Origin: a virus
Taxonomy: Duplodnaviria > Heunggongvirae > Uroviricota > Caudoviricetes
Reading direction: 5' to 3' (one strand)
Virus record (IMG/VR): IMGVR_UViG_2740892031_000004
DNA length: 15,282 nt
A program made the translations under genes and the position numbers. Position 1 is the stretch's first letter; every line of letters begins with the position of its first letter. A model generated the notes under the pieces. It saw only the letters and a list, made by a program, of their open reading frames with translations, was not told the DNA's origin and did not search any database. Below are positions 4,054 to 10,260 of this stretch, piece by piece.

Positions 4054-6015
4054 TCATGCCGCGATGTCCGCGTTGTTCACTTCCACCTTCACACTGTCAA
4101 TCAGCAGCGTATATGTCGCCGCCTTTGATATGCCTGTCAGTTGCAGTTTGTCCGCCGCCCCTGATGCCGGAGATTTCACCAGTGTGAACGGCGTCCCCCG
4201 TTTCTCATCCAGTACCGGCGTCACCTGAATGCTGTTGTTTCCGGCAAACTCAAAAGCCAGTGTGTGCCATCCGTTATCAAAGACCCCGAACGTATCCAGC
4301 TTCGCATTCGGCTTCTTGTGGTGCATCGCGTTCAGGTTCGTCGCATCCGTCTGCAGGAAGAAGGACATCAGCATGTCGTTGCCTTCCTCTGCCAGCGTCA
4401 CTCCCTCCGGCAGGGACGACAACTGCCAGTAAATGCCCAGGGCAAACTGATTCGGCACCAGTGAACCCGGCAACTTAAACCGTACGCTCACACGTCCCCC
4501 CTTCTTCAGTAACTCCACTCCCTGTCCGGCTGCATCATGCTCCAGAAACCAGATGTGGTTTTCCGGTTTATTCAGTTGCAGGGCCTTACCTCCCGTAGCC
4601 CCCGCATCACTGACCACCGCTTCAGCAATGTTTTTGTTAACATTGTCTCCGCTCGCCGGTTTGTGATAATAGCGCCAGCCCTGTGATGCCAGGTCTTCGC
4701 CGGACGCCAGCAGACTCATCAGGGTTCGGTTACTGACCGGGGCTTCCGGCTCTCTCTCCGTACCTTCACCGGAAGGTCCGGTGGGCTTCACCGTATCAGG
4801 CTGTTTTCCGGTAATGAATTCAGCGTTTCTCCCGGCATGCACAAGAATCGCCGTTGCCAGACGGTCGGAAATAATCCCACGACGTGCCCATGATCCAAAA
4901 TGCGTTTTACGGTCGGCCGTCGTCCAGGTTTTGGCGTCCGTTCGACCACCGGCTCCGTAATACCCAATATCCGCAACATCCGGATCTTCTGACGGCTCGT
5001 TGGTACCCACATTTCGCCCGTTTTCATCCGTCATAAACGGCACAAAGAAGATTTTTTTTGCGGATTTCGTCTTGTATGCACCATACACCGCATCGTATTG
5101 CGAAGAATAAGTCTGCTTCCAGTAGTAGGTCGTGTCGCCACAAATCCAGGGAACCGATGACGGAGAGCCCCCGAGACACTGACCTCCGAATTCCGACAGG
5201 TCAGAACGATATTTTTCCACCATGGAATCAAACAGCCCCGGCTGAGTGGCGTATGCACCCTGTTTCAAATCAAACTCGCCCTGCATCCAGACCACTGCAA
5301 GCAGAATATTTTTAGGGTTGGCCTTCAGTGCGGCCTGAGTACGGGTAAGCAGGTCCTTGTACAGTGGCTTATCAACACCCCAGCGTGCCGAGGTCTCGCT
5401 TGCGCTGGTGGATTCGCTGAAGGTACCTTCATCGCCCGCCAAAAATGCAGAACCACCACGGCAGCACGGAACCAGAAGAATACCGGCATTCGCCGGAATA
5501 AACGGCAACAATTTCTTCGCGATATGTAATCCCTGCCCCACGCATCCATACTGAGCTGCGCTGGCTTTCGGGTGTGAAAACTTACTCAAATCCTGAACAT
5601 CATGCAGGCAGTGGTCCGCAGGAATAATGTCATTGTAGTTACAGGACGCACCACCCGGCGTGACAGTGCTGCGACGCGCCAGCTGTTTAATACGCGGGTC
5701 CGGACGGTCATATGTCTCCGGCAGCGGAAGCCCTTCACCATACGCCATACCGTTTGACCGCCCGGCTAGGGCAACAACAAAGTAATACTCCGGGTTGCTG
5801 GTGGTGCTGATAACTGCGCCTTCTCCATCCGACGGCTTCACCACCACAGGTGTGGTGACATCACCTTCCGCCGCAATGGCCTGCATCAGGGTATAAGGCG
5901 TGATGGCCACCGGACTGCCAAATGGCTGCCACCCCTCCTTCAGTTTTTGTGTCAGTCGTTTCGCAAGGTCTGACGGCGATGCCGCCCTGACAACATCATA
6001 GTGTTTAAATGCCAT
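4054..6015 (-). CDS. nanS-p: prophage NanS-p-type sialate O-acetylesterase (DUF1737 N-terminus plus SASA esterase region)
   Basis: 653 aa from ATG at 6013-6015 (ORF track gives 658 aa from 6030, which lacks an SD). N-terminus MAFKHYDVV...EGWQPFGSPV matches the DUF1737 pattern seen in the large yjhS/nanS-like proteins downstream of stx in EHEC prophages. Same position relative to Q and S as in Stx phages. Confidence 0.75.
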   Translation of the reverse strand: MAFKHYDVVRAASPSDLAKRLTQKLKEGWQPFGSPVAITPYTLMQAIAAEGDVTTPVVVKPSDGEGAVISTTSNPEYYFVVALAGRSNGMAYGEGLPLPETYDRPDPRIKQLARRSTVTPGGASCNYNDIIPADHCLHDVQDLSKFSHPKASAAQYGCVGQGLHIAKKLLPFIPANAGILLVPCCRGGSAFLAGDEGTFSESTSASETSARWGVDKPLYKDLLTRTQAALKANPKNILLAVVWMQGEFDLKQGAYATQPGLFDSMVEKYRSDLSEFGGQCLGGSPSSVPWICGDTTYYWKQTYSSQYDAVYGAYKTKSAKKIFFVPFMTDENGRNVGTNEPSEDPDVADIGYYGAGGRTDAKTWTTADRKTHFGSWARRGIISDRLATAILVHAGRNAEFITGKQPDTVKPTGPSGEGTEREPEAPVSNRTLMSLLASGEDLASQGWRYYHKPASGDNVNKNIAEAVVSDAGATGGKALQLNKPENHIWFLEHDAAGQGVELLKKGGRVSVRFKLPGSLVPNQFALGIYWQLSSLPEGVTLAEEGNDMLMSFFLQTDATNLNAMHHKKPNAKLDTFGVFDNGWHTLAFEFAGNNSIQVTPVLDEKRGTPFTLVKSPASGAADKLQLTGISKAATYTLLIDSVKVEVNNADIAA

Positions 6016-6208
6016 GGTTCTTTCCACCATCTGAAAAATAATTCTTTAAAATACCTGACATGTAATACAGAAAAAACACAAAACCATACCTTAAATAAAA
6101 ACCTCATCATCAAGCAGATATGCATGGATAAACTACAAGACGAGATATAAACCACCCTGCATTTAAATAAACAATAAACAACATCAGAAAAATAATTCTG
6201 CTCTATGG

Positions 6209-6275: not shown

Positions 6276-6611
6276 ATGAAGTGGATTGTGATTGATACAG
6301 TTATCCAGCCATCATGCGGAATATCTTTTTCAGTCATATGGAGTAAAATAAAATTAATAATCTGGTATCAATCGGATGCTTTCTTACCTCCTGAAAGTAT
6401 ATTTACACTGACTCACACAGGTATCATGCTCAATAACAAAGTGCTACCTGTAACCATTTACAACGTAGCACCATTCAATAAAACATTCTGGAATTTAATC
6501 AAAAACAGCCAGGAATGTCCTACAAATACAGATAACGTATTGAATGAATGCTTTAATAACCGTTGCACTCTGCAAATATGTCCTTATGGACTAAAACAAC
6601 AAAGTCCATAA
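6276..6611 (+). CDS. hypothetical protein (111 aa) in an AT-rich islet; only convincing + strand gene outside IS2
   Basis: ATG at 6276 with AAGGA SD 6 nt upstream. The AT-rich coding sequence contrasts with flanking phage genes. C-terminal cysteine cluster (C81, C92, C97, C102). Stop codon lies inside a perfect 12-bp hairpin. No homolog recognised. Confidence 0.45.
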
Positions 6612-6614
6612 GGA
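6581..6614 (+). other. perfect 12-bp inverted repeat (hairpin) overlapping the stop of the + strand ORF
   Basis: TCCTTATGGACT (6581-6592), 10-nt loop, AGTCCATAAGGA (6603-6614). No strong U-tract on either side, so possibly a weak terminator or a protein-binding palindrome. Confidence 0.35.
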
Positions 6615-6625
6615 GTTTACTCACA

Positions 6626-6667
6626 TCTGACAAAATCAATATAAACAGCCCCTCCGGAGAGGGGCTG
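6626..6667 (-). terminator. candidate intrinsic terminator (minus strand)
   Basis: GC-rich 9-bp stem CAGCCCCTC / GAGGGGCTG (6646-6667) with 4-nt loop, followed on the minus strand by UUUAUAUUGAUUUUG. Confidence 0.4.
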
Positions 6668-6981
6668 GAGAGTGGCGCTATGTGCCATTGCATGATGCCG
6701 GGTGCCTCCCGGTGAGTTCAGTATCAGCACCTGAACCCGCACAGAAAGGATAAGGGTCGGTGACAAAACACCAGTTGCTGATTGCCCCTCCGCACAGGGG
6801 GATTCACCATGCCAGTTTCTTTTAACAAACTCCCCGCAAACCAGACAACAGTCAACCGCCTGAATTGTGAGGTATTTAAAAATTTCTCCAGATAACTGAT
6901 ACCCGGCTAACAGTCTGGCGTTTTCTTTTTCAGCAACGGGAAAGCAACAACCACCACACCCACCAGCCGCCCATTTACCAC

Positions 6982-7008
6982 AAATAAAAAAGCCTTCAGG
7001 ACTGAAGG
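6982..7008 (-). terminator. candidate intrinsic terminator (minus strand) at the end of the small ORF
   Basis: Stem CCTTCA / TGAAGG (6993-7008) followed on the minus strand by CTTTTTTATTTG (complement of 6982-6992). Confidence 0.45.
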
Positions 7009-7193
7009 TGTCTGTAACAACCAAACTGATAGTCTGCCAGACCCGCCATAACAAGCTGGGTCAGTATTAACTGGCAGCGTTCGCGTGAAAGGTAAGTATT
7101 CTGTGCAATCTCCCCGACTGTCGCCGGTTCGGTGACGCTTAACTCATTAAACACCACTCTGGCGGTTTCGGTCATATCCTGCTGTTTTAGCAT
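6996..7193 (-). CDS. small protein (65 aa) with helix-turn-helix-like segment
   Basis: ATG at 7191-7193 with AAGGGAAAAAG upstream; MLKQQDMTETARVVFNELSVTEPATVGEIAQNTYLSRERCQLILTQLVMAGLADYQ... The ORF track extends to an ATG at 7314-7316 that abuts the terminator T-run and has no SD. Confidence 0.4.
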   Translation of the reverse strand: MLKQQDMTETARVVFNELSVTEPATVGEIAQNTYLSRERCQLILTQLVMAGLADYQFGCYRHLQS

Positions 7194-7316
7194 GTCTTTT
7201 TCCCTTTTCTGGTTAACGTAACATACCAATAACTCTTGTCGGAAAAGCCAGCAAGCTGAAAGACCGGTATTCGCAACCACCAGCGCGTTTAATGTTCTGT
7301 GCCGTTTTTCAGGCAT

Positions 7317-7340
7317 AAAAAAACCCGCAAAAAGCGGGCT
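7317..7340 (-). terminator. intrinsic terminator about 80 nt downstream of Q (tR'-like)
   Basis: Stem CCCGC / GCGGG (7324-7338) with AAAAA loop; on the minus strand the hairpin is followed by a T7 run (complement of A7 at 7317-7323). Position matches the lambdoid pR'-qut-tR' layout. Confidence 0.55.
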
Positions 7341-7417
7341 CTTTCAAATGTCCATGTCTGCTATTCGCCTCGTGGTACAGCTTTGCGAAGCGTACCGGAA
7401 TTGAAGCAGTTTTTACG

Positions 7418-7972
7418 TCAAAAAGCAATAACTTTTTCCTCTATACCAAAAGCCATAACCATTGGTTTGTACAAAATAAATTCTGCCACCTTTAGCCAAT
7501 GCTCAATGCGTCTTTCACAGGTTCTTAAACTCCATTCCGGGTGTGCATCATTCAGCAGTTCAGCCATTTTGCGCTTAGTCATCCCCCGCCCCACATAACG
7601 CTGACTCAGGACATTGAGCAGCCCGGGATAGCCTGCCAGGACTTCACCAATAACCCTGTCGATTATTAACGCCTCTGAATCGGTACAATGTGCCAGCCAG
7701 CTTTTTTGATTGCCGTTGATCATATCCCGCAAAAAAGCCTCAAGTTCAGGTTTGTCCAGACCAGCTTTTTTCATCCTCCGGAGCGCCTCGTTAATTGCCG
7801 TTTTTGTCAGCTTTTTAGAGGTCAGTAATTGGTTGAACATATTTCCCGTCTTACCGCCGCCAATATACGACCACCGCCCCCACATCCGTAATTTCCCCTG
7901 GATCCAGACTGCTTCCAGCGTTTTTAGACGTAAATGCTCGCCGCTTTTGCCTGTAATTTCCGGATATATCAT
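7418..7972 (-). CDS. Q: late-gene antiterminator Q (Phage_antitermQ-like)
   Basis: 184 aa from ATG at 7970-7972 (ORF track starts at GTG 7984, overlapping the rusA stop). Sits directly upstream of a terminator and the lysis genes, and downstream of rusA. Family call is from recalled Q sequences. Confidence 0.75.
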   Translation of the reverse strand: MIYPEITGKSGEHLRLKTLEAVWIQGKLRMWGRWSYIGGGKTGNMFNQLLTSKKLTKTAINEALRRMKKAGLDKPELEAFLRDMINGNQKSWLAHCTDSEALIIDRVIGEVLAGYPGLLNVLSQRYVGRGMTKRKMAELLNDAHPEWSLRTCERRIEHWLKVAEFILYKPMVMAFGIEEKVIAF

Positions 7973-7980
7973 ATTTACGC

Positions 7981-8340
7981 TCACTCACTCTCAATTTTGT
8001 AAATCTTCACACCCAGCCGTCCACCAGATACTGGCTGACCACGTACAATATTGATTTCATCAAACTGCTCATCGTCCATTAACACTCCCGCATGCGTCAG
8101 CGCATCCAGCGGTGCTTTCAGGATATTGTCCAGGTCGCGACGACGCTTATCCGGTGGCTCTGCAATCACCTTTATCGCCAGCCTTCCGGACAGGCTTAAT
8201 TTCAGCCGCTGCTGGCGAACAATAAGCGCCACAGCCCGGCGATAACGCTTTCCCTCCTCCGAGATAAAATATGTGCTGCCACGGCGTCGCCAGTAAGTGT
8301 TCACCGTCGGCGGGTAAGGTAAAACCAAATCTATGAGCAT
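7981..8340 (-). CDS. rusA: Holliday-junction resolvase RusA
   Basis: 119 aa; core motifs match recalled E. coli RusA (PDKRRRDLDNILKAPLDALTHAGVLMDDEQ vs [30 protein letters not shown]; GGRL near the C-terminus). Confidence 0.9.
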   Translation of the reverse strand: MLIDLVLPYPPTVNTYWRRRGSTYFISEEGKRYRRAVALIVRQQRLKLSLSGRLAIKVIAEPPDKRRRDLDNILKAPLDALTHAGVLMDDEQFDEINIVRGQPVSGGRLGVKIYKIESE

Positions 8341-9848: not shown

Positions 9849-10004
9849 TTACTCCTCAGGTTCGTAAGCTGTGAAGACAGTGACCTCCGTCTGGCCGGTT
9901 CGGATTCGTACCTCGCAGAGGTCTTTCCTCGTTACCAGTGCCGTCATTATGACGGTTAAACAGATGACGATCAGGGCGATTAACATCGCCTTTTGCTGCT
10001 TCAT
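9849..10004 (-). CDS. hokD: Hok/Gef-family type I toxin (51 aa)
   Basis: Minus-strand translation MKQQKAMLIALIVICLTVIMTALVTRKDLCEVRIRTGQTEVTVFTAYEPEE matches the Hok family and is nearly identical to my recollection of HokD/RelF. AAGGAG SD 9 nt upstream of the ATG at 10002-10004. Below the 60-aa cutoff, so absent from the ORF track. Confidence 0.85.
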   Translation of the reverse strand: MKQQKAMLIALIVICLTVIMTALVTRKDLCEVRIRTGQTEVTVFTAYEPEE

Positions 10005-10260
10005 AGCCTGCTTCTCCTTGACCTTTCGGTCCGTAAGAGGCTAATCTCTATGTGTCGCATAGATATGGCCTCAGATTAATGTTAAGCGTCTTGCAGGACC
10101 GCGTAATGTTAACTGGGGCTTTTCTCTATCTGCCTTTTGGTGTTCATGCCTGAGACAGATAGCCTCAAGCACCCGCAGTCATTCTACTTAACTAAGATTT
10201 CCCCGCAAACCGTTTTTGTCCGGCACAGTAAATATCCAACTAAACCAATGGCGTTCGCTG
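10005..10260 (-). promoter_or_regulatory. hok mRNA leader region (expected site of mok overlap and sok-type antisense control)
   Basis: Non-coding stretch upstream of hok. Hok loci normally carry a long structured leader with an antisense RNA; the individual elements were not resolved here. Confidence 0.3.

Follow-up and report, generated by a model that had tools for sequence, protein, structure and literature searches.

A probable STnc100-family small RNA gene in the moron slot of a prophage, with a proposed anatomy and mechanism

Introduction

The STnc100 small RNAs (sRNAs) are carried by prophages of Salmonella, E. coli and Shigella. In O157:H7 Sakai, Tree et al. (2014, PMC4104026) described a prophage slot that holds sRNA pairs in at least eight prophages. 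One of these sRNAs, EcOnc05 from prophage Sp4, was crosslinked to Hfq and runs at ~222 nt on Northern blots, where the sizes for EcOnc05 and EcOnc27 span 222–247 nt and EcOnc06 measures ~177 nt. According to the supplement to that study, EcOnc05 and EcOnc06 were probed within the core and EcOnc27 within a tail class, and loss of Hfq destabilizes the 247-nt EcOnc27 species. The copy STnc100_4 was confirmed by Northern blot in EDL933 (PMC5331693). Overexpression of EcOnc27/sRNA103 reportedly raises the fimZ and espA transcripts; the reported connections to fimZ/espA and stxB are either indirect or made in silico, and no STnc100-type copy has a validated target.

A second group, PasD1 and PasD2, comes from EPEC E2348/69 (Pearl Mizrahi et al. 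2021; Zhu, Shabalina and Storz 2026 preprint). Hfq-dependent stability on Northern blots and RIL-seq targets are reported for the Pas sRNAs, and PasD1 and PasD2 are 172–173 nt long (PMC8550237). A common origin of STnc100 and PasD was proposed in the Zhu, Shabalina and Storz preprint.

Here we analyse a 15,282-nt stretch of a Caudoviricetes virus record (IMGVR_UViG_2740892031_000004), referred to below as the window. A preliminary description had singled out positions 6626–7008 as a non-coding segment bounded by two minus-strand terminators, and had named a structured RNA, a Q-antiterminated leader and decayed sequence as possible readings. We conclude with good confidence that the segment holds a prophage-borne STnc100-family sRNA gene in the 'moron' slot, for which we propose an anatomy and a mechanism.

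Results

A full-length STnc100 match between antiterminator and lysis genes

The Rfam covariance model RF02076 (STnc100) matches positions 6841..6637 of the minus strand at 133.5 bits (E = 9e-30; gathering score 47 bits), and does so over its full length (model positions 1–206 of 206). The Sakai copies used as controls score 207.7 bits (EcOnc27) and 138 bits (EcOnc05). The closing helix, the internal hairpins and the 3′ terminator hairpin are all able to pair in the model alignment and fold, and the gene lies where STnc100 genes are found: in a lambdoid prophage, in the antiterminator-to-lysis interval and on the strand of the late genes. Judged by its sequence, 6841..6637 is an ordinary STnc100 copy whose content is already known, and the first ~29 model positions probably correspond to promoter DNA in the window. 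The suggested structured non-coding RNA is therefore borne out as a full-length STnc100-family sRNA gene of ~175–205 nt, both by the Rfam match and by helices compensated across the family.

Such copies are common. Matching places number 6797, spread over 2704 of the 5426 complete E. coli genomes (about half), and the sequenced phage PhiR5_1 carries a copy 96% identical to the sRNA of the window. With the 16-mer GCATGGTGAATCCYCC as query, viral contigs proved productive, and genome contigs gave only chance matches from unrelated phyla.

The minus strand reads, in order, DUF968, RusA, the DUF1133/Q-like gene, a 65-aa ORF, a DUF3927 remnant, the sRNA, a SASA-type esterase, holin and lysozyme (Table 1). 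Convergent to these, iraM ends 27 nt from the sRNA 3′ end. A recombination junction to the iraM module lies directly after the sRNA terminator stem, and the same STnc100–iraM junction recurs in many contigs. The anti-sRNAs AgvB and AsxR (RF02702, RF02703) have no match in the window, where iraM occupies their usual convergent place; as a control, AsxR was detected in Sakai Sp5 at 88.1 bits.

Table 1 Features of the sRNA locus and its surroundings in the window, in minus-strand order. Positions are those of the window.
Feature	Position	Strand	Evidence or remark
Q-like DUF1133/Phage_antitermQ gene	7984..7418	-	Pfam
Hairpin 7008-6993 with U-run	6983..7008	-	Terminator scan; 6-bp stem, 3 G-C pairs, tail CTTTTTTATT
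DUF3927 mini-gene remnant, 24 codons	6907..6981	-	Pfam DUF3927 positions 32-53 of 53, 32 bits
Weak hairpin 6906-6888 with AGAAATTTTT	6879..6906	-	Terminator scan; directly after stop codon of DUF3927 remnant
Conserved leader block CTCACAATTCAG	6860..6871	-	Alignment of 17 diverse upstream regions
Candidate -35, TTGTCT	6843..6848	-	18 nt upstream of -10; TTG (near-)invariant in 17 upstream regions
Candidate extended -10, TGtTAAAAG	6819..6827	-	Conserved block TTTGTTAAAA
Predicted primary sRNA transcript, ~175 nt	6638..6812	-	PasD 5′-end homology and promoter spacing
P1, 5′ strand GCAUGGUG	6805..6812	-	Pairs with 6697-6690; 99.5% paired; 5 of 8 pairs changed on both sides
P2 hairpin, CCCC-UGUGCGGA-GGGG	6785..6800	-	Rfam alignment; invariant in 25 sequences
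X, candidate pseudoknot 5′ strand, AUCAGCA	6776..6782	-	Cognate versus swapped loop test
P3, variable hairpin insert, UGGUG-UUUUGU-CACCG	6758..6773	-	Fold; length and sequence vary among copies
CU-rich stretch ACCCUUAUCCUUUCUGUGC	6739..6757	-	Candidate internal seed
P4 hairpin, GGGUUCAG / CUGAACUC	6714..6738	-	8 of 8 pairs changed on both sides
X′, candidate pseudoknot 3′ strand in P4 loop, UGCUGAU	6729-6723	-	Partner test
P5 hairpin, CCGGG-AGGCA-CCCGG	6698..6712	-	Rfam alignment; 100% paired, nearly invariant; abuts P1 3′ strand
P1, 3′ strand CAUCAUGC	6690..6697	-	One G-U pair here, G-C in most copies
Linker AAUGGCACAUAGCGCCACUCUC, 22 nt	6668..6689	-	Mostly unpaired; internal 4-bp hairpin in minimum-energy fold
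sRNA intrinsic terminator UUUAUAUUGA	6636..6667	-	Stem 6667-6646, 9 bp, 7 G-C, tail TTTATATTGA
iraM	6276-6611	+	NCBIfam, 162 bits
SASA-type esterase	6030..4054	-	Holin and lysozyme further downstream

The upstream half belongs to other units

Both hairpins with U-tracts in the preliminary description are present in the terminator scan, at 7008–6993 and 6667–6646, and they do bracket the segment. They do not bracket one transcript: the upstream site ends an ORF and the downstream site ends the sRNA. By itself the 7008–6993 hairpin is weak (−6.8 kcal/mol, z = −0.18); we call it a terminator because the stop codon of the 65-aa ORF lies inside its stem and a U-run follows. It is likely the intrinsic terminator of this HTH-like ORF (7193..6996) and lies outside the sRNA. 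Terminator-like sites are not enriched in the region overall, with four found against 1.9 ± 1.3 in shuffles.

Downstream of this hairpin, the segment is mosaic. The block 7328–6956 shares 90–94% identity with Stx2 phages and phiP27, and a joint at ~6956–6965 cuts the DUF3927 remnant (BLAST boundaries at query 173–545 versus 536–1201). Since the 24-aa ORF matches only the C-terminal half of DUF3927, we read it as a 5′-truncated remnant and reject it as an intact gene. Complete 52-aa DUF3927 genes lie ~40 nt upstream of PasD1 and PasD2, and the searchable literature on the STnc100/PasD family holds no description of a frequent DUF3927–sRNA linkage. The sRNA module has its left edge at the weak hairpin that follows the remnant; the Sakai Sp4 copy is likewise preceded by a hairpin and T-run, then AAAT.

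The segment was correctly seen to lack a spanning protein gene, and the only internal ATG of the long ORF 7054..6617 does lie 23 codons before its stop. The 145-aa ORF has no Pfam match and was rejected as a protein gene. An AUG frame inside the sRNA was discarded as well, its length ranging without conservation from 11 to 73 codons across variants. The label 'non-coding' needs one correction, as PGAP annotates a 24-aa 'DUF3927 family protein' in ATCC 25922 at the equivalent of 6981..6907. It is also to these positions, the truncated remnant at the mosaic joint, that the suggestion of decayed sequence applies, and to these only.

The absence of a tRNA, judged by eye in the preliminary description, was upheld by ARAGORN (0 genes in the window) and by Rfam (no tRNA or tmRNA at E ≤ 1 in 6300–7500), which rule out a tRNA or tRNA-like reading; both kinds of tRNA were detected in the Sakai control locus. 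Its remark that Stx phages carry tRNA genes at this position is true of Sakai Sp4, in which ileZ-argN-argO immediately precede the STnc100 copy.

A Q-antiterminated leader is right as to the setting, inside the late unit downstream of the Q-like gene, but the leader-like unit itself lies further upstream. There, a candidate promoter seen by eye just after the Q-like stop is followed by a strong terminator at ~7340–7315, and some 410 nt separate the Q-like stop codon (7418) from the start of the interval of interest. The isrK model scores a sub-threshold 18 bits against 50 at the leader-like unit and has no score in the interval.

A conserved core and a candidate pseudoknot

The sRNA core spans 123 nt and comprises the closing helix P1 and the hairpins P2, P3, P4 and P5. 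The pairing of the P1 5′ strand with 6697–6690 buries the RNA 5′ end in a helix. Across 25 diverse copies, pairing holds in 98.9% of cells, and changes on both sides are seen at 13 pairs; none of 500 shuffles reaches these values, and sliding the partners lowers pairing to ~45%. The minimum-energy fold also offers the CU-rich stretch at 6739..6757 a partner in the 3′ half of P2.

A single MAFFT alignment is unable to keep the pseudoknot in register, as copies differ by 1–3 nt in the linker after P2, and the pseudoknot was assessed by cognate versus swapped-partner energies instead of alignment pair counts. Swapping the P4 loop among 11 sequence classes gave −52 ± 9.6 kcal/mol against −105 observed, a value reached in none of 200,000 permutations, although the 11 classes reduce to ~4–5 truly unrelated solutions and the permutation figure therefore overstates independence. 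The best-register 7-mer count is a poor control, since members of related classes also pair with one another (non-cognate mean 5.3 of 7). These energies suggest a pseudoknot in the conserved core, formed by 6782–6776 with 6729–6723 and backed by several unrelated complementary pairs. The searchable literature on the STnc100/PasD family makes no mention of a pseudoknot, which is possibly one new point in an otherwise known family.

Promoter and 5′ end

Upstream of the core, a −35 and an extended −10 element are candidates for a promoter of the sRNA. We describe the block TTTGTTAAAA as conserved because, in the 17 upstream regions, alignment positions T56, A60 and A63 never vary and G57 hardly does. 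A simple scan called no sigma-70 promoter here on the minus strand, and the T that normally closes a −10 is missing from the proposed one; given the empty scan, we base the promoter call on conservation and on where the PasD 5′ end has been mapped. The position of the −10 puts +1 at G6812, which corresponds to the 5′ end that RNA-seq gave for PasD2 (PMC8550237 table S6). The PasD 5′ end GCAUGGUGAAUCC is preceded by TTG..(T)TAAAA promoter blocks that are also shared with STnc100, in agreement with the proposed common origin. The predicted transcript 6812–6638 folds at −73.8 kcal/mol (z = −3.08).

Data from Sakai place 5′ ends 40–70 nt upstream of GCAUGG, as seen in the probe position of EcOnc13, in the 222–247-nt bands and in the Hfq-CRAC peak of EcOnc27, which begins ~40 nt upstream. 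Such upstream starts mean that the RNA could be processed from a longer transcript. The 5′ end is accordingly uncertain by comparison with these relatives, and longer forms beginning 50–70 nt upstream are possible. The conserved block CTCACAATTCAG may belong to the promoter DNA upstream of the RNA or to the 5′ portion of longer isoforms. A possible leader hairpin around TTGAC..GTTGYCTG pairs well in Sp5 and poorly in the window.

The 3′ linker and terminator

Between the core and the terminator, the 22-nt linker is identical to the EcOnc05 tail, and the PasD seed lies at the equivalent position; by analogy, the linker is most likely the seed region. The PasD seed UGUGAG itself is absent just upstream of the window terminator, where GCGCCACUCUCCAG stands instead. 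The stem 6667–6646 is the terminator of the Rfam STnc100 model. The U-tract after it is interrupted (UUUAUAUU), so termination and Hfq binding could be weakened.

Discussion

From its characterized relatives, we propose that in the lysogen the sRNA would be transcribed from its own sigma-70 promoter as a ~175-nt RNA stopping at its own terminator. By the same comparison, this RNA would bind Hfq and base-pair with mRNAs in trans, possibly through the 3′ linker (GCGCCACUCUCC, anti-Shine-Dalgarno-like), through the internal CU-rich stretch, or through both, with the structured core mainly serving to protect and present it. After induction, Q-modified RNA polymerase arriving from upstream would read through both terminators.

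The same RNA might instead be released from the 3′ end of a longer late or moron transcript, one that reads through from the upstream ORF or from the Q-dependent promoter, by an RNase E cut in the U/A-rich region at ~6885–6875. The lengths of EcOnc05 and EcOnc27, together with the CRAC peak, would put 5′ ends near the UUUUUAAAU block, and the upstream terminators are weak, as would suit a processed RNA for which the scan called no promoter. Against this, conservation in the upstream region is highest at the −35 TTG, the TG and the −11 A, from which exactly the PasD 5′ end is predicted, the lengths of EcOnc06 and PasD fit a GCAUGG start, and RpoD binding has been reported at the LT2 copies (PMC10794520). 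We consider processing unlikely, and it could coexist with transcription from the sRNA's own promoter. Still less probable is a main role in cis, as an antisense or convergent partner of iraM or as an insulator of the downstream late genes in the lysogen. The 27-nt spacing to iraM would suit such a role, as would the convergent sRNA pair that normally fills this slot in EHEC and the recurrence of the junction with iraM. The terminator scan found no plus-strand terminator-like site between 5900 and 8100, so iraM transcripts may run antisense through the sRNA. The same sRNA, however, is found with other downstream partners, either AsxR/AgvB-type sRNAs or the esterase directly, and selection on the core, its covariation included, is therefore independent of iraM; nor does a plain terminator need a conserved 123-nt pseudoknotted domain.

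That the locus is a decayed phage relic or a pseudo-tRNA appears very improbable. The truncated DUF3927 gene next to it, the G-U pair in P1 and the poor U-tract hint at decay, and tRNA genes sit at the neighbouring position in Sakai Sp4. Yet the covariance model matches over its full length with all helices intact, compensatory changes run across the family, a close copy is present in the sequenced phage PhiR5_1, matching places number in the thousands, and neither ARAGORN nor Rfam finds a tRNA-like match, even at E ≤ 1. We retain a probable trans-acting STnc100-family sRNA as our reading of the segment.

More tentatively, and with somewhat less than even confidence, we suggest that the conserved 5′ two-thirds of the STnc100/PasD RNAs form a discrete domain in which a four-way junction of P1, P2, P4 and P5 is locked by the pseudoknot, giving a scaffold selected for its shape beneath exchanged 3′ seed and terminator cassettes. 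If this is true, the core would be a portable scaffold, possibly with a protein partner of its own or a nuclease-blocking function. The family combines one conserved structured core with many interchangeable 3′ tails, and for this reason offers a good system in which to study cassette exchange as a means by which phages reshape post-transcriptional control in their hosts. For the core of these RNAs, the pseudoknot, with covariation behind it, provides a concrete and testable structural hypothesis. The assignment also closes an annotation gap, as PGAP names the 24-aa gene fragment and omits the sRNA. The prophage in the window is of the B2/ExPEC type (relatives in ATCC 25922 and ST131), not an Stx phage, and its sRNA family is among the most abundant prophage ones in E. 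coli.

Comparison with known systems

Among the closest relatives is EcOnc05, which is 81% identical overall. Its 5′ 37 nt and upstream promoter block are identical to those of the window, and only three substitutions separate the two from P4 to the end of the terminator stem, with complete identity over the last ~54 nt (tail and stem); the P3 region differs. Their neighbours differ as well. Upstream, Sp4 has tRNAs where the window has the DUF3927 remnant, and downstream it has a convergent AgvB/AsxR-type anti-sRNA (by the coordinates of Tree et al.; our Rfam scan did not call it) where the window has iraM. EcOnc27/sRNA103, found in Sakai Sp5 and EDL933 immediately 3′ of stx2B, is 66% identical and shares P1, P2, P4, P5 and the pseudoknot principle, as well as a slot downstream of a moron gene. 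It has its own pseudoknot pair (CUGGUG/UACCAG), a different tail and terminator, and AsxR as its partner.

PasD1 and PasD2 occupy the same genomic slot with DUF3927 directly upstream, and have in common with the window the 5′ end, the promoter layout, P1, P2, P4 and a length of ~172 nt. They fall below the RF02076 gathering score, with 56% global identity to the window sRNA and likeness confined to the first 29 nt at the 5′ end and to isolated positions in the core. PasD lacks P5, reads CCUC-CUUG-GAGG at the position of P2, pairs AAUGAUC with GAUCAUU in its pseudoknot, and has a seed and terminator unlike those of the window. The late leaders lambda 6S RNA, StxS and IsrK resemble the sRNA as short, terminated late-region RNAs that Q-modified polymerase would read through. 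Transcription of these leaders begins at the late promoter that immediately follows the Q gene, whereas the corresponding unit in the window is ~7393–7315, outside the interval.

Set against the STnc100 family as a whole, the window copy shows no essential difference. What is particular to it is its P3 insert and CU-rich stretch, the G-U pair in P1, and the replacement of its own U-tract at the junction with the iraM module.

An unannotated STnc100 sRNA in the prophage late region

The interval at 6626-7008 (-) holds a gene fragment and one more copy, so far unannotated, of a prophage sRNA family that is already known and very common. An Rfam scan, which the preliminary description had suggested as a check, finds RF02076 (STnc100) matched over its full length at 6841..6637 (-), with 133.5 bits (E = 9e-30) against a gathering score of 47 bits. 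On two experimentally studied copies in E. coli O157 Sakai, the same model scores 138 bits (prophage Sp4) and 207.7 bits (Sp5, where the copy lies 3′ of stx2B). Within 6300-7500, Rfam gives just two other matches at E ≤ 1, both further upstream: a Trp-leader match due to chance and a sub-threshold isrK. As a member of the family, the window copy carries its intact covarying structure, a promoter-like conserved block and a terminator, in the late region. PGAP annotation carries no RNA at this position in near-identical prophages, and the one part of our analysis that may be new is the reading of the core as a pseudoknotted scaffold.

On the minus strand, ~330 nt between the upstream U-run and the downstream hairpin contain no convincing gene. 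The preliminary description placed this stretch between two hairpin and U-tract structures, and a terminator scan recovers both; terminator-like sites are not enriched over the region (4 found versus 1.9 ± 1.3 expected). The long ORF (7054..6617), described as running through a terminator stem, is present and has no Pfam match. No tRNA T-arm signature had been seen by eye, in agreement with ARAGORN (0 tRNA in the whole window) and with the Rfam matches at E ≤ 1 in 6300-7500, none of which is a tRNA. A structured non-coding RNA and decayed sequence had both been considered. The full-length STnc100 match and the covarying helices establish the former, while decay holds for the truncated DUF3927 relic at 6981..6907 but not for the STnc100 part, whose structure is intact.

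Of the 53 positions in the Pfam DUF3927 model, this relic ORF covers 32-53 only. BLAST match boundaries place a mosaic joint at ~6956-6965, where block 7328-6956 goes with Stx2 phages and phiP27 and block 6965-6300 goes with other phages. The partial match and the joint lead us to read the ORF as a truncated DUF3927 relic of which only the C-terminal 21 codons survive. Intact 52-aa hydrophobic DUF3927 genes lie ~40 nt upstream of the EPEC E2348/69 sRNAs PasD1 and PasD2 (loci L003 1959-2117 and L004 1562-1720), and a DUF3927-like ORF is found on the same strand, ≤450 nt upstream, in 69 of 139 collected STnc100/PasD copies. The 2026 Pas preprint (Zhu, Shabalina and Storz) says nothing of this linkage.

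Features of the sRNA locus and its neighbourhood
Feature	Position	Strand	Sequence or description
DUF968, RusA		-	first in minus-strand gene order
Q-slot protein, DUF1133	7984..7418	-	Q-like gene
65-aa ORF	7193..6996	-	weakly TrmB/HTH-like; follows Q-like gene, precedes DUF3927 remnant and sRNA
Upstream hairpin	7008-6993	-	short stem, then U-run CUUUUUUAUUU
24-aa "DUF3927 family protein"	6981..6907	-	PGAP, equivalent position in ATCC 25922
TTG	6848-6846	-	among most conserved upstream positions
TG	6827-6826	-	among most conserved upstream positions
T and A opening TAAAAG	6824-6819	-	among most conserved upstream positions
P1		-	GCAUGGUG / CACCAUGC; closes 100-130-nt domain
P2		-	CCCC/GGGG
P3		-	variable insert
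P4		-	GGGUUCAG / CUGAACUC
P5		-	CCGGG / CCCGG; adjoins P1 3′ strand
Proposed pseudoknot strands, window	6782-6776 with 6729-6723	-	AUCAGCA with UGCUGAU; complementary
Proposed pseudoknot pairs, other copies			AUCAGU/ACUGAU; CUGGUG/CACCGG; CUGGUGU/ACACCGG; AAUGAC/GUCAUU; CUGGCU/AGCCAG; CUGGCA/UGCCAG; ACUGAUU/AAUCAGU
Proposed pseudoknot pair, PasD			AAUGAUC/GAUCAUU
Tail and terminator		-	3′ of P5 / P1 3′ strand; tail variable
Downstream hairpin	6667-6646	-	strong, G+C-rich, then UUUAUAUUGA
iraM homologue (anti-adaptor of RssB)	6276-6611	+	NCBIfam 162 bits; convergent with sRNA
658-aa DUF1737/SASA/DUF6645 esterase (NanS-p-like)	6030..4054	-	3′ of sRNA; then holin, lysozyme

Predicted ends of the RNA

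The upstream hairpin, likely the terminator of the 65-aa ORF rather than part of the sRNA, has little folding energy of its own (-6.8 kcal/mol, z = -0.18) and is credible because of its position over the stop codon of that ORF. For PasD2, RNA-seq places the 5′ end at the G of GCAUGGUGAAUCC (PMC8550237), equivalent to window position 6812. The block found to be conserved when 17 diverse upstream regions are aligned reads as a putative -35 and an extended -10 separated by 18 nt, with a candidate +1 at 6812, 7 nt downstream. The -10 lacks its final T, and this candidate was not called in a simple promoter scan. Such a promoter would give an sRNA of ~175 nt, a size that agrees with EcOnc06 and PasD, and the first ~29 positions of the RF02076 model probably take in some promoter DNA. 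Longer isoforms, from an upstream start or processed read-through transcripts, are likely in at least some copies, since the EcOnc27 Hfq peak in Sakai starts ~40 nt upstream of GCAUGG (Tree et al. 2014), the EcOnc13 Northern probe lies at -40 to -6 (Tree et al. 2014, PMC4104026), and the Sakai bands, at 222-247 nt, point to 5′ ends close to the UUUUUAAAU/CUCACAAUUCAG block.

A covarying core with a proposed pseudoknot

The structure of the core (helices P1-P5) was derived from 119 copies with 45 distinct cores, from 120 IMG/VR loci, plus four more diverged copies. Across 25 diverse sequences, 98.9% of helix cells are paired and 13 of 25 pairs have changed on both sides, supplying the covariation that the preliminary description had proposed to look for. 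None of 500 shuffles matches the observed pairing and compensation values, and sliding the partners lowers pairing to ~45%. The covariation sits in P1 and P4; P2 and P5 are uninformative either way because they are nearly invariant. As P1 begins at the predicted +1, the 5′ end would be buried. RNase E senses RNA 5′ ends, and a buried end should stabilise the sRNA.

The P4 loop (X′) is complementary to the 6-7 nt directly 3′ of P2 (X), and we propose that these strands form a pseudoknot within the core. Their complementarity is retained across copies despite different sequences. Among 11 class representatives, comprising ~4-5 truly unrelated solutions and several single-pair compensations since related classes cross-pair, and with the register picked separately for each class, the summed X:X′ duplex energy is -105 kcal/mol versus -52 ± 9.6 kcal/mol with loops swapped. 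This value was reached in 0 of 200,000 loop permutations. The linkers (1 or 2 nt from the first P4 strand to X′ and 1 nt from X′ to the second) are compatible with a 6-7-bp loop helix in kissing-loop or H-type pseudoknot geometry. In two small classes a nested hairpin takes the place of the pseudoknot. The 2026 preprint on PasD and STnc100 mentions no pseudoknot, DUF3927 or promoter.

A CU-rich stretch, UAUCCUUUCUGUGCGGG (6757-6739), resembles the 5′ half of P2, AAUCCCCCUGUGCGGAGGGG (6803-6785), on the minus strand and looks like a partial repeat. In the minimum-energy fold of the window copy it pairs with GCGGAGGGG, competing with the 5′ half of P2. The resemblance may stem from a partial duplication long ago, or the stretch may form an alternative conformer.

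Prophage neighbourhood

The Q-slot protein also exceeds the Pfam Phage_antitermQ threshold (32.6 bits versus 26), suggesting that the DUF1133 family comprises divergent Q-type antiterminators. In the 7428-7315 (-) region, a possible promoter read by eye (TTGCTT, 17 nt, TTCAAT) directly follows the Q-like stop codon (7420-7418), with a strong terminator, AGCCCGCUUUUUGCGGGUUUUUUU, after it at ~7340-7315 (-); the RNA would be ~78 nt. This unit, which contains the full-length but sub-threshold isrK match (7391-7318 (-), 18 bits versus 50), looks like a counterpart of the lambda 6S/StxS/IsrK late-leader RNA.

On the other side of the sRNA, iraM ends 27 nt from the sRNA 3′ end. Downstream of iraM the scan found no terminator-like site on the plus strand, and iraM transcription may therefore continue antisense across the sRNA. 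In EHEC prophages such as those of Sakai, the place held here by iraM is occupied by the anti-sRNA AgvB or AsxR, neither of which has an Rfam match in the window. The esterase ORF is intact in the window, and the annotation of the 99.7% identical ATCC 25922 prophage lists it as a frameshifted pseudogene. In the early region, the sok antitoxin RNA (RF01794) has a full-length match at 10002-10174 (-) (106.4 bits versus 59), hokD is annotated beside it in the near-identical ATCC 25922 prophage, and the locus is a predicted hok/sok type I toxin-antitoxin module.

Distribution and exchangeable 3′ cassettes

Segment 6875-6636 (240 nt) has 6797 matching places, spread over 2704 of 5426 complete E. 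coli genomes, and also matches 284 phage records, mainly Stx2 phages. Prophages of ATCC 25922 and ST131 strains share the whole 1.2-kb neighbourhood of the sRNA at 99.7% identity. The 3′ tails of the 119 copies form many unrelated classes, of which that of the window (CAAUGGCACAUAGCGCCACUCUCCAG plus CCCCUCUCCGGAGGGG stem) is the commonest (~50 copies). Sequence 3′ of the terminator stem varies with the neighbour: the iraM junction (GCUGUUUAUAUUG) follows in 26 copies, as it does in the window, and CUUUCUUAUGG, then the terminator of the partner sRNA, in others. The family thus combines a conserved core with seed and terminator cassettes that can be exchanged. Two or more tandem STnc100 copies, spaced ~230-270 or ~468 nt, occur on single contigs (L128, L131, L140, L141, L149, L162, L189, L194, L204), with at least four copies of different cores and tails in L128, suggesting local duplication or cassette arrays.

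Comparison with known prophage sRNAs

In at least eight Sakai prophages, the "moron" site that lies downstream of the Q-dependent late promoter carries Hfq-crosslinked sRNAs, mostly in convergent pairs (Tree et al. 2014). Northern blots size EcOnc05 (Sp4) at ~222 nt, EcOnc06 (Sp17) at ~177 nt and EcOnc27 (Sp5) at 235/247 nt, the 247-nt form being destabilised without Hfq (Tree et al. 2014, PMC4104026). The EcOnc05 and EcOnc06 probes map within the STnc100 core, and the EcOnc27 probe corresponds to a 3′ tail that occurs in the family. EcOnc27 is sRNA103 of EDL933, whose overexpression was reported to raise transcript levels of fimZ and espA, by a mechanism that is unclear. EDL933 has 11 STnc100 matches, most of them transcribed and one Northern-confirmed (PMC5331693). 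The EPEC sRNAs PasD1 (173 nt) and PasD2 (172 nt) are Northern-validated and have many RIL-seq partners, and Northern blots indicate Hfq-dependent stability for Pas sRNAs (PMC8550237). The proposed stxB interaction of an STnc100-type sRNA is in silico only, and STnc100-type copies have no validated target. By analogy with these relatives, the window sRNA would be transcribed in the lysogen, bind Hfq and base-pair in trans. Its seed could be the 22-nt linker 6689-6668, as the PasD seed position suggests, or the CU-rich stretch; both resemble anti-Shine-Dalgarno sequences.

PasD and STnc100 share a common ancestor according to the 2026 preprint. RF02076 at its gathering score misses PasD and matches the window copy, which is therefore STnc100 proper; we rejected an assignment to PasD, given also only 56% identity to PasD2. 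Against the window sRNA, EcOnc27 shows 66% identity and the copy carried by the sequenced phage PhiR5_1 shows 96%. EcOnc05 is 81% identical overall: it has the same upstream block, 5′-terminal 37 nt and final ~54 nt (tail and stem), carries three substitutions in all from P4 through the terminator stem, and differs in the variable P3 region.
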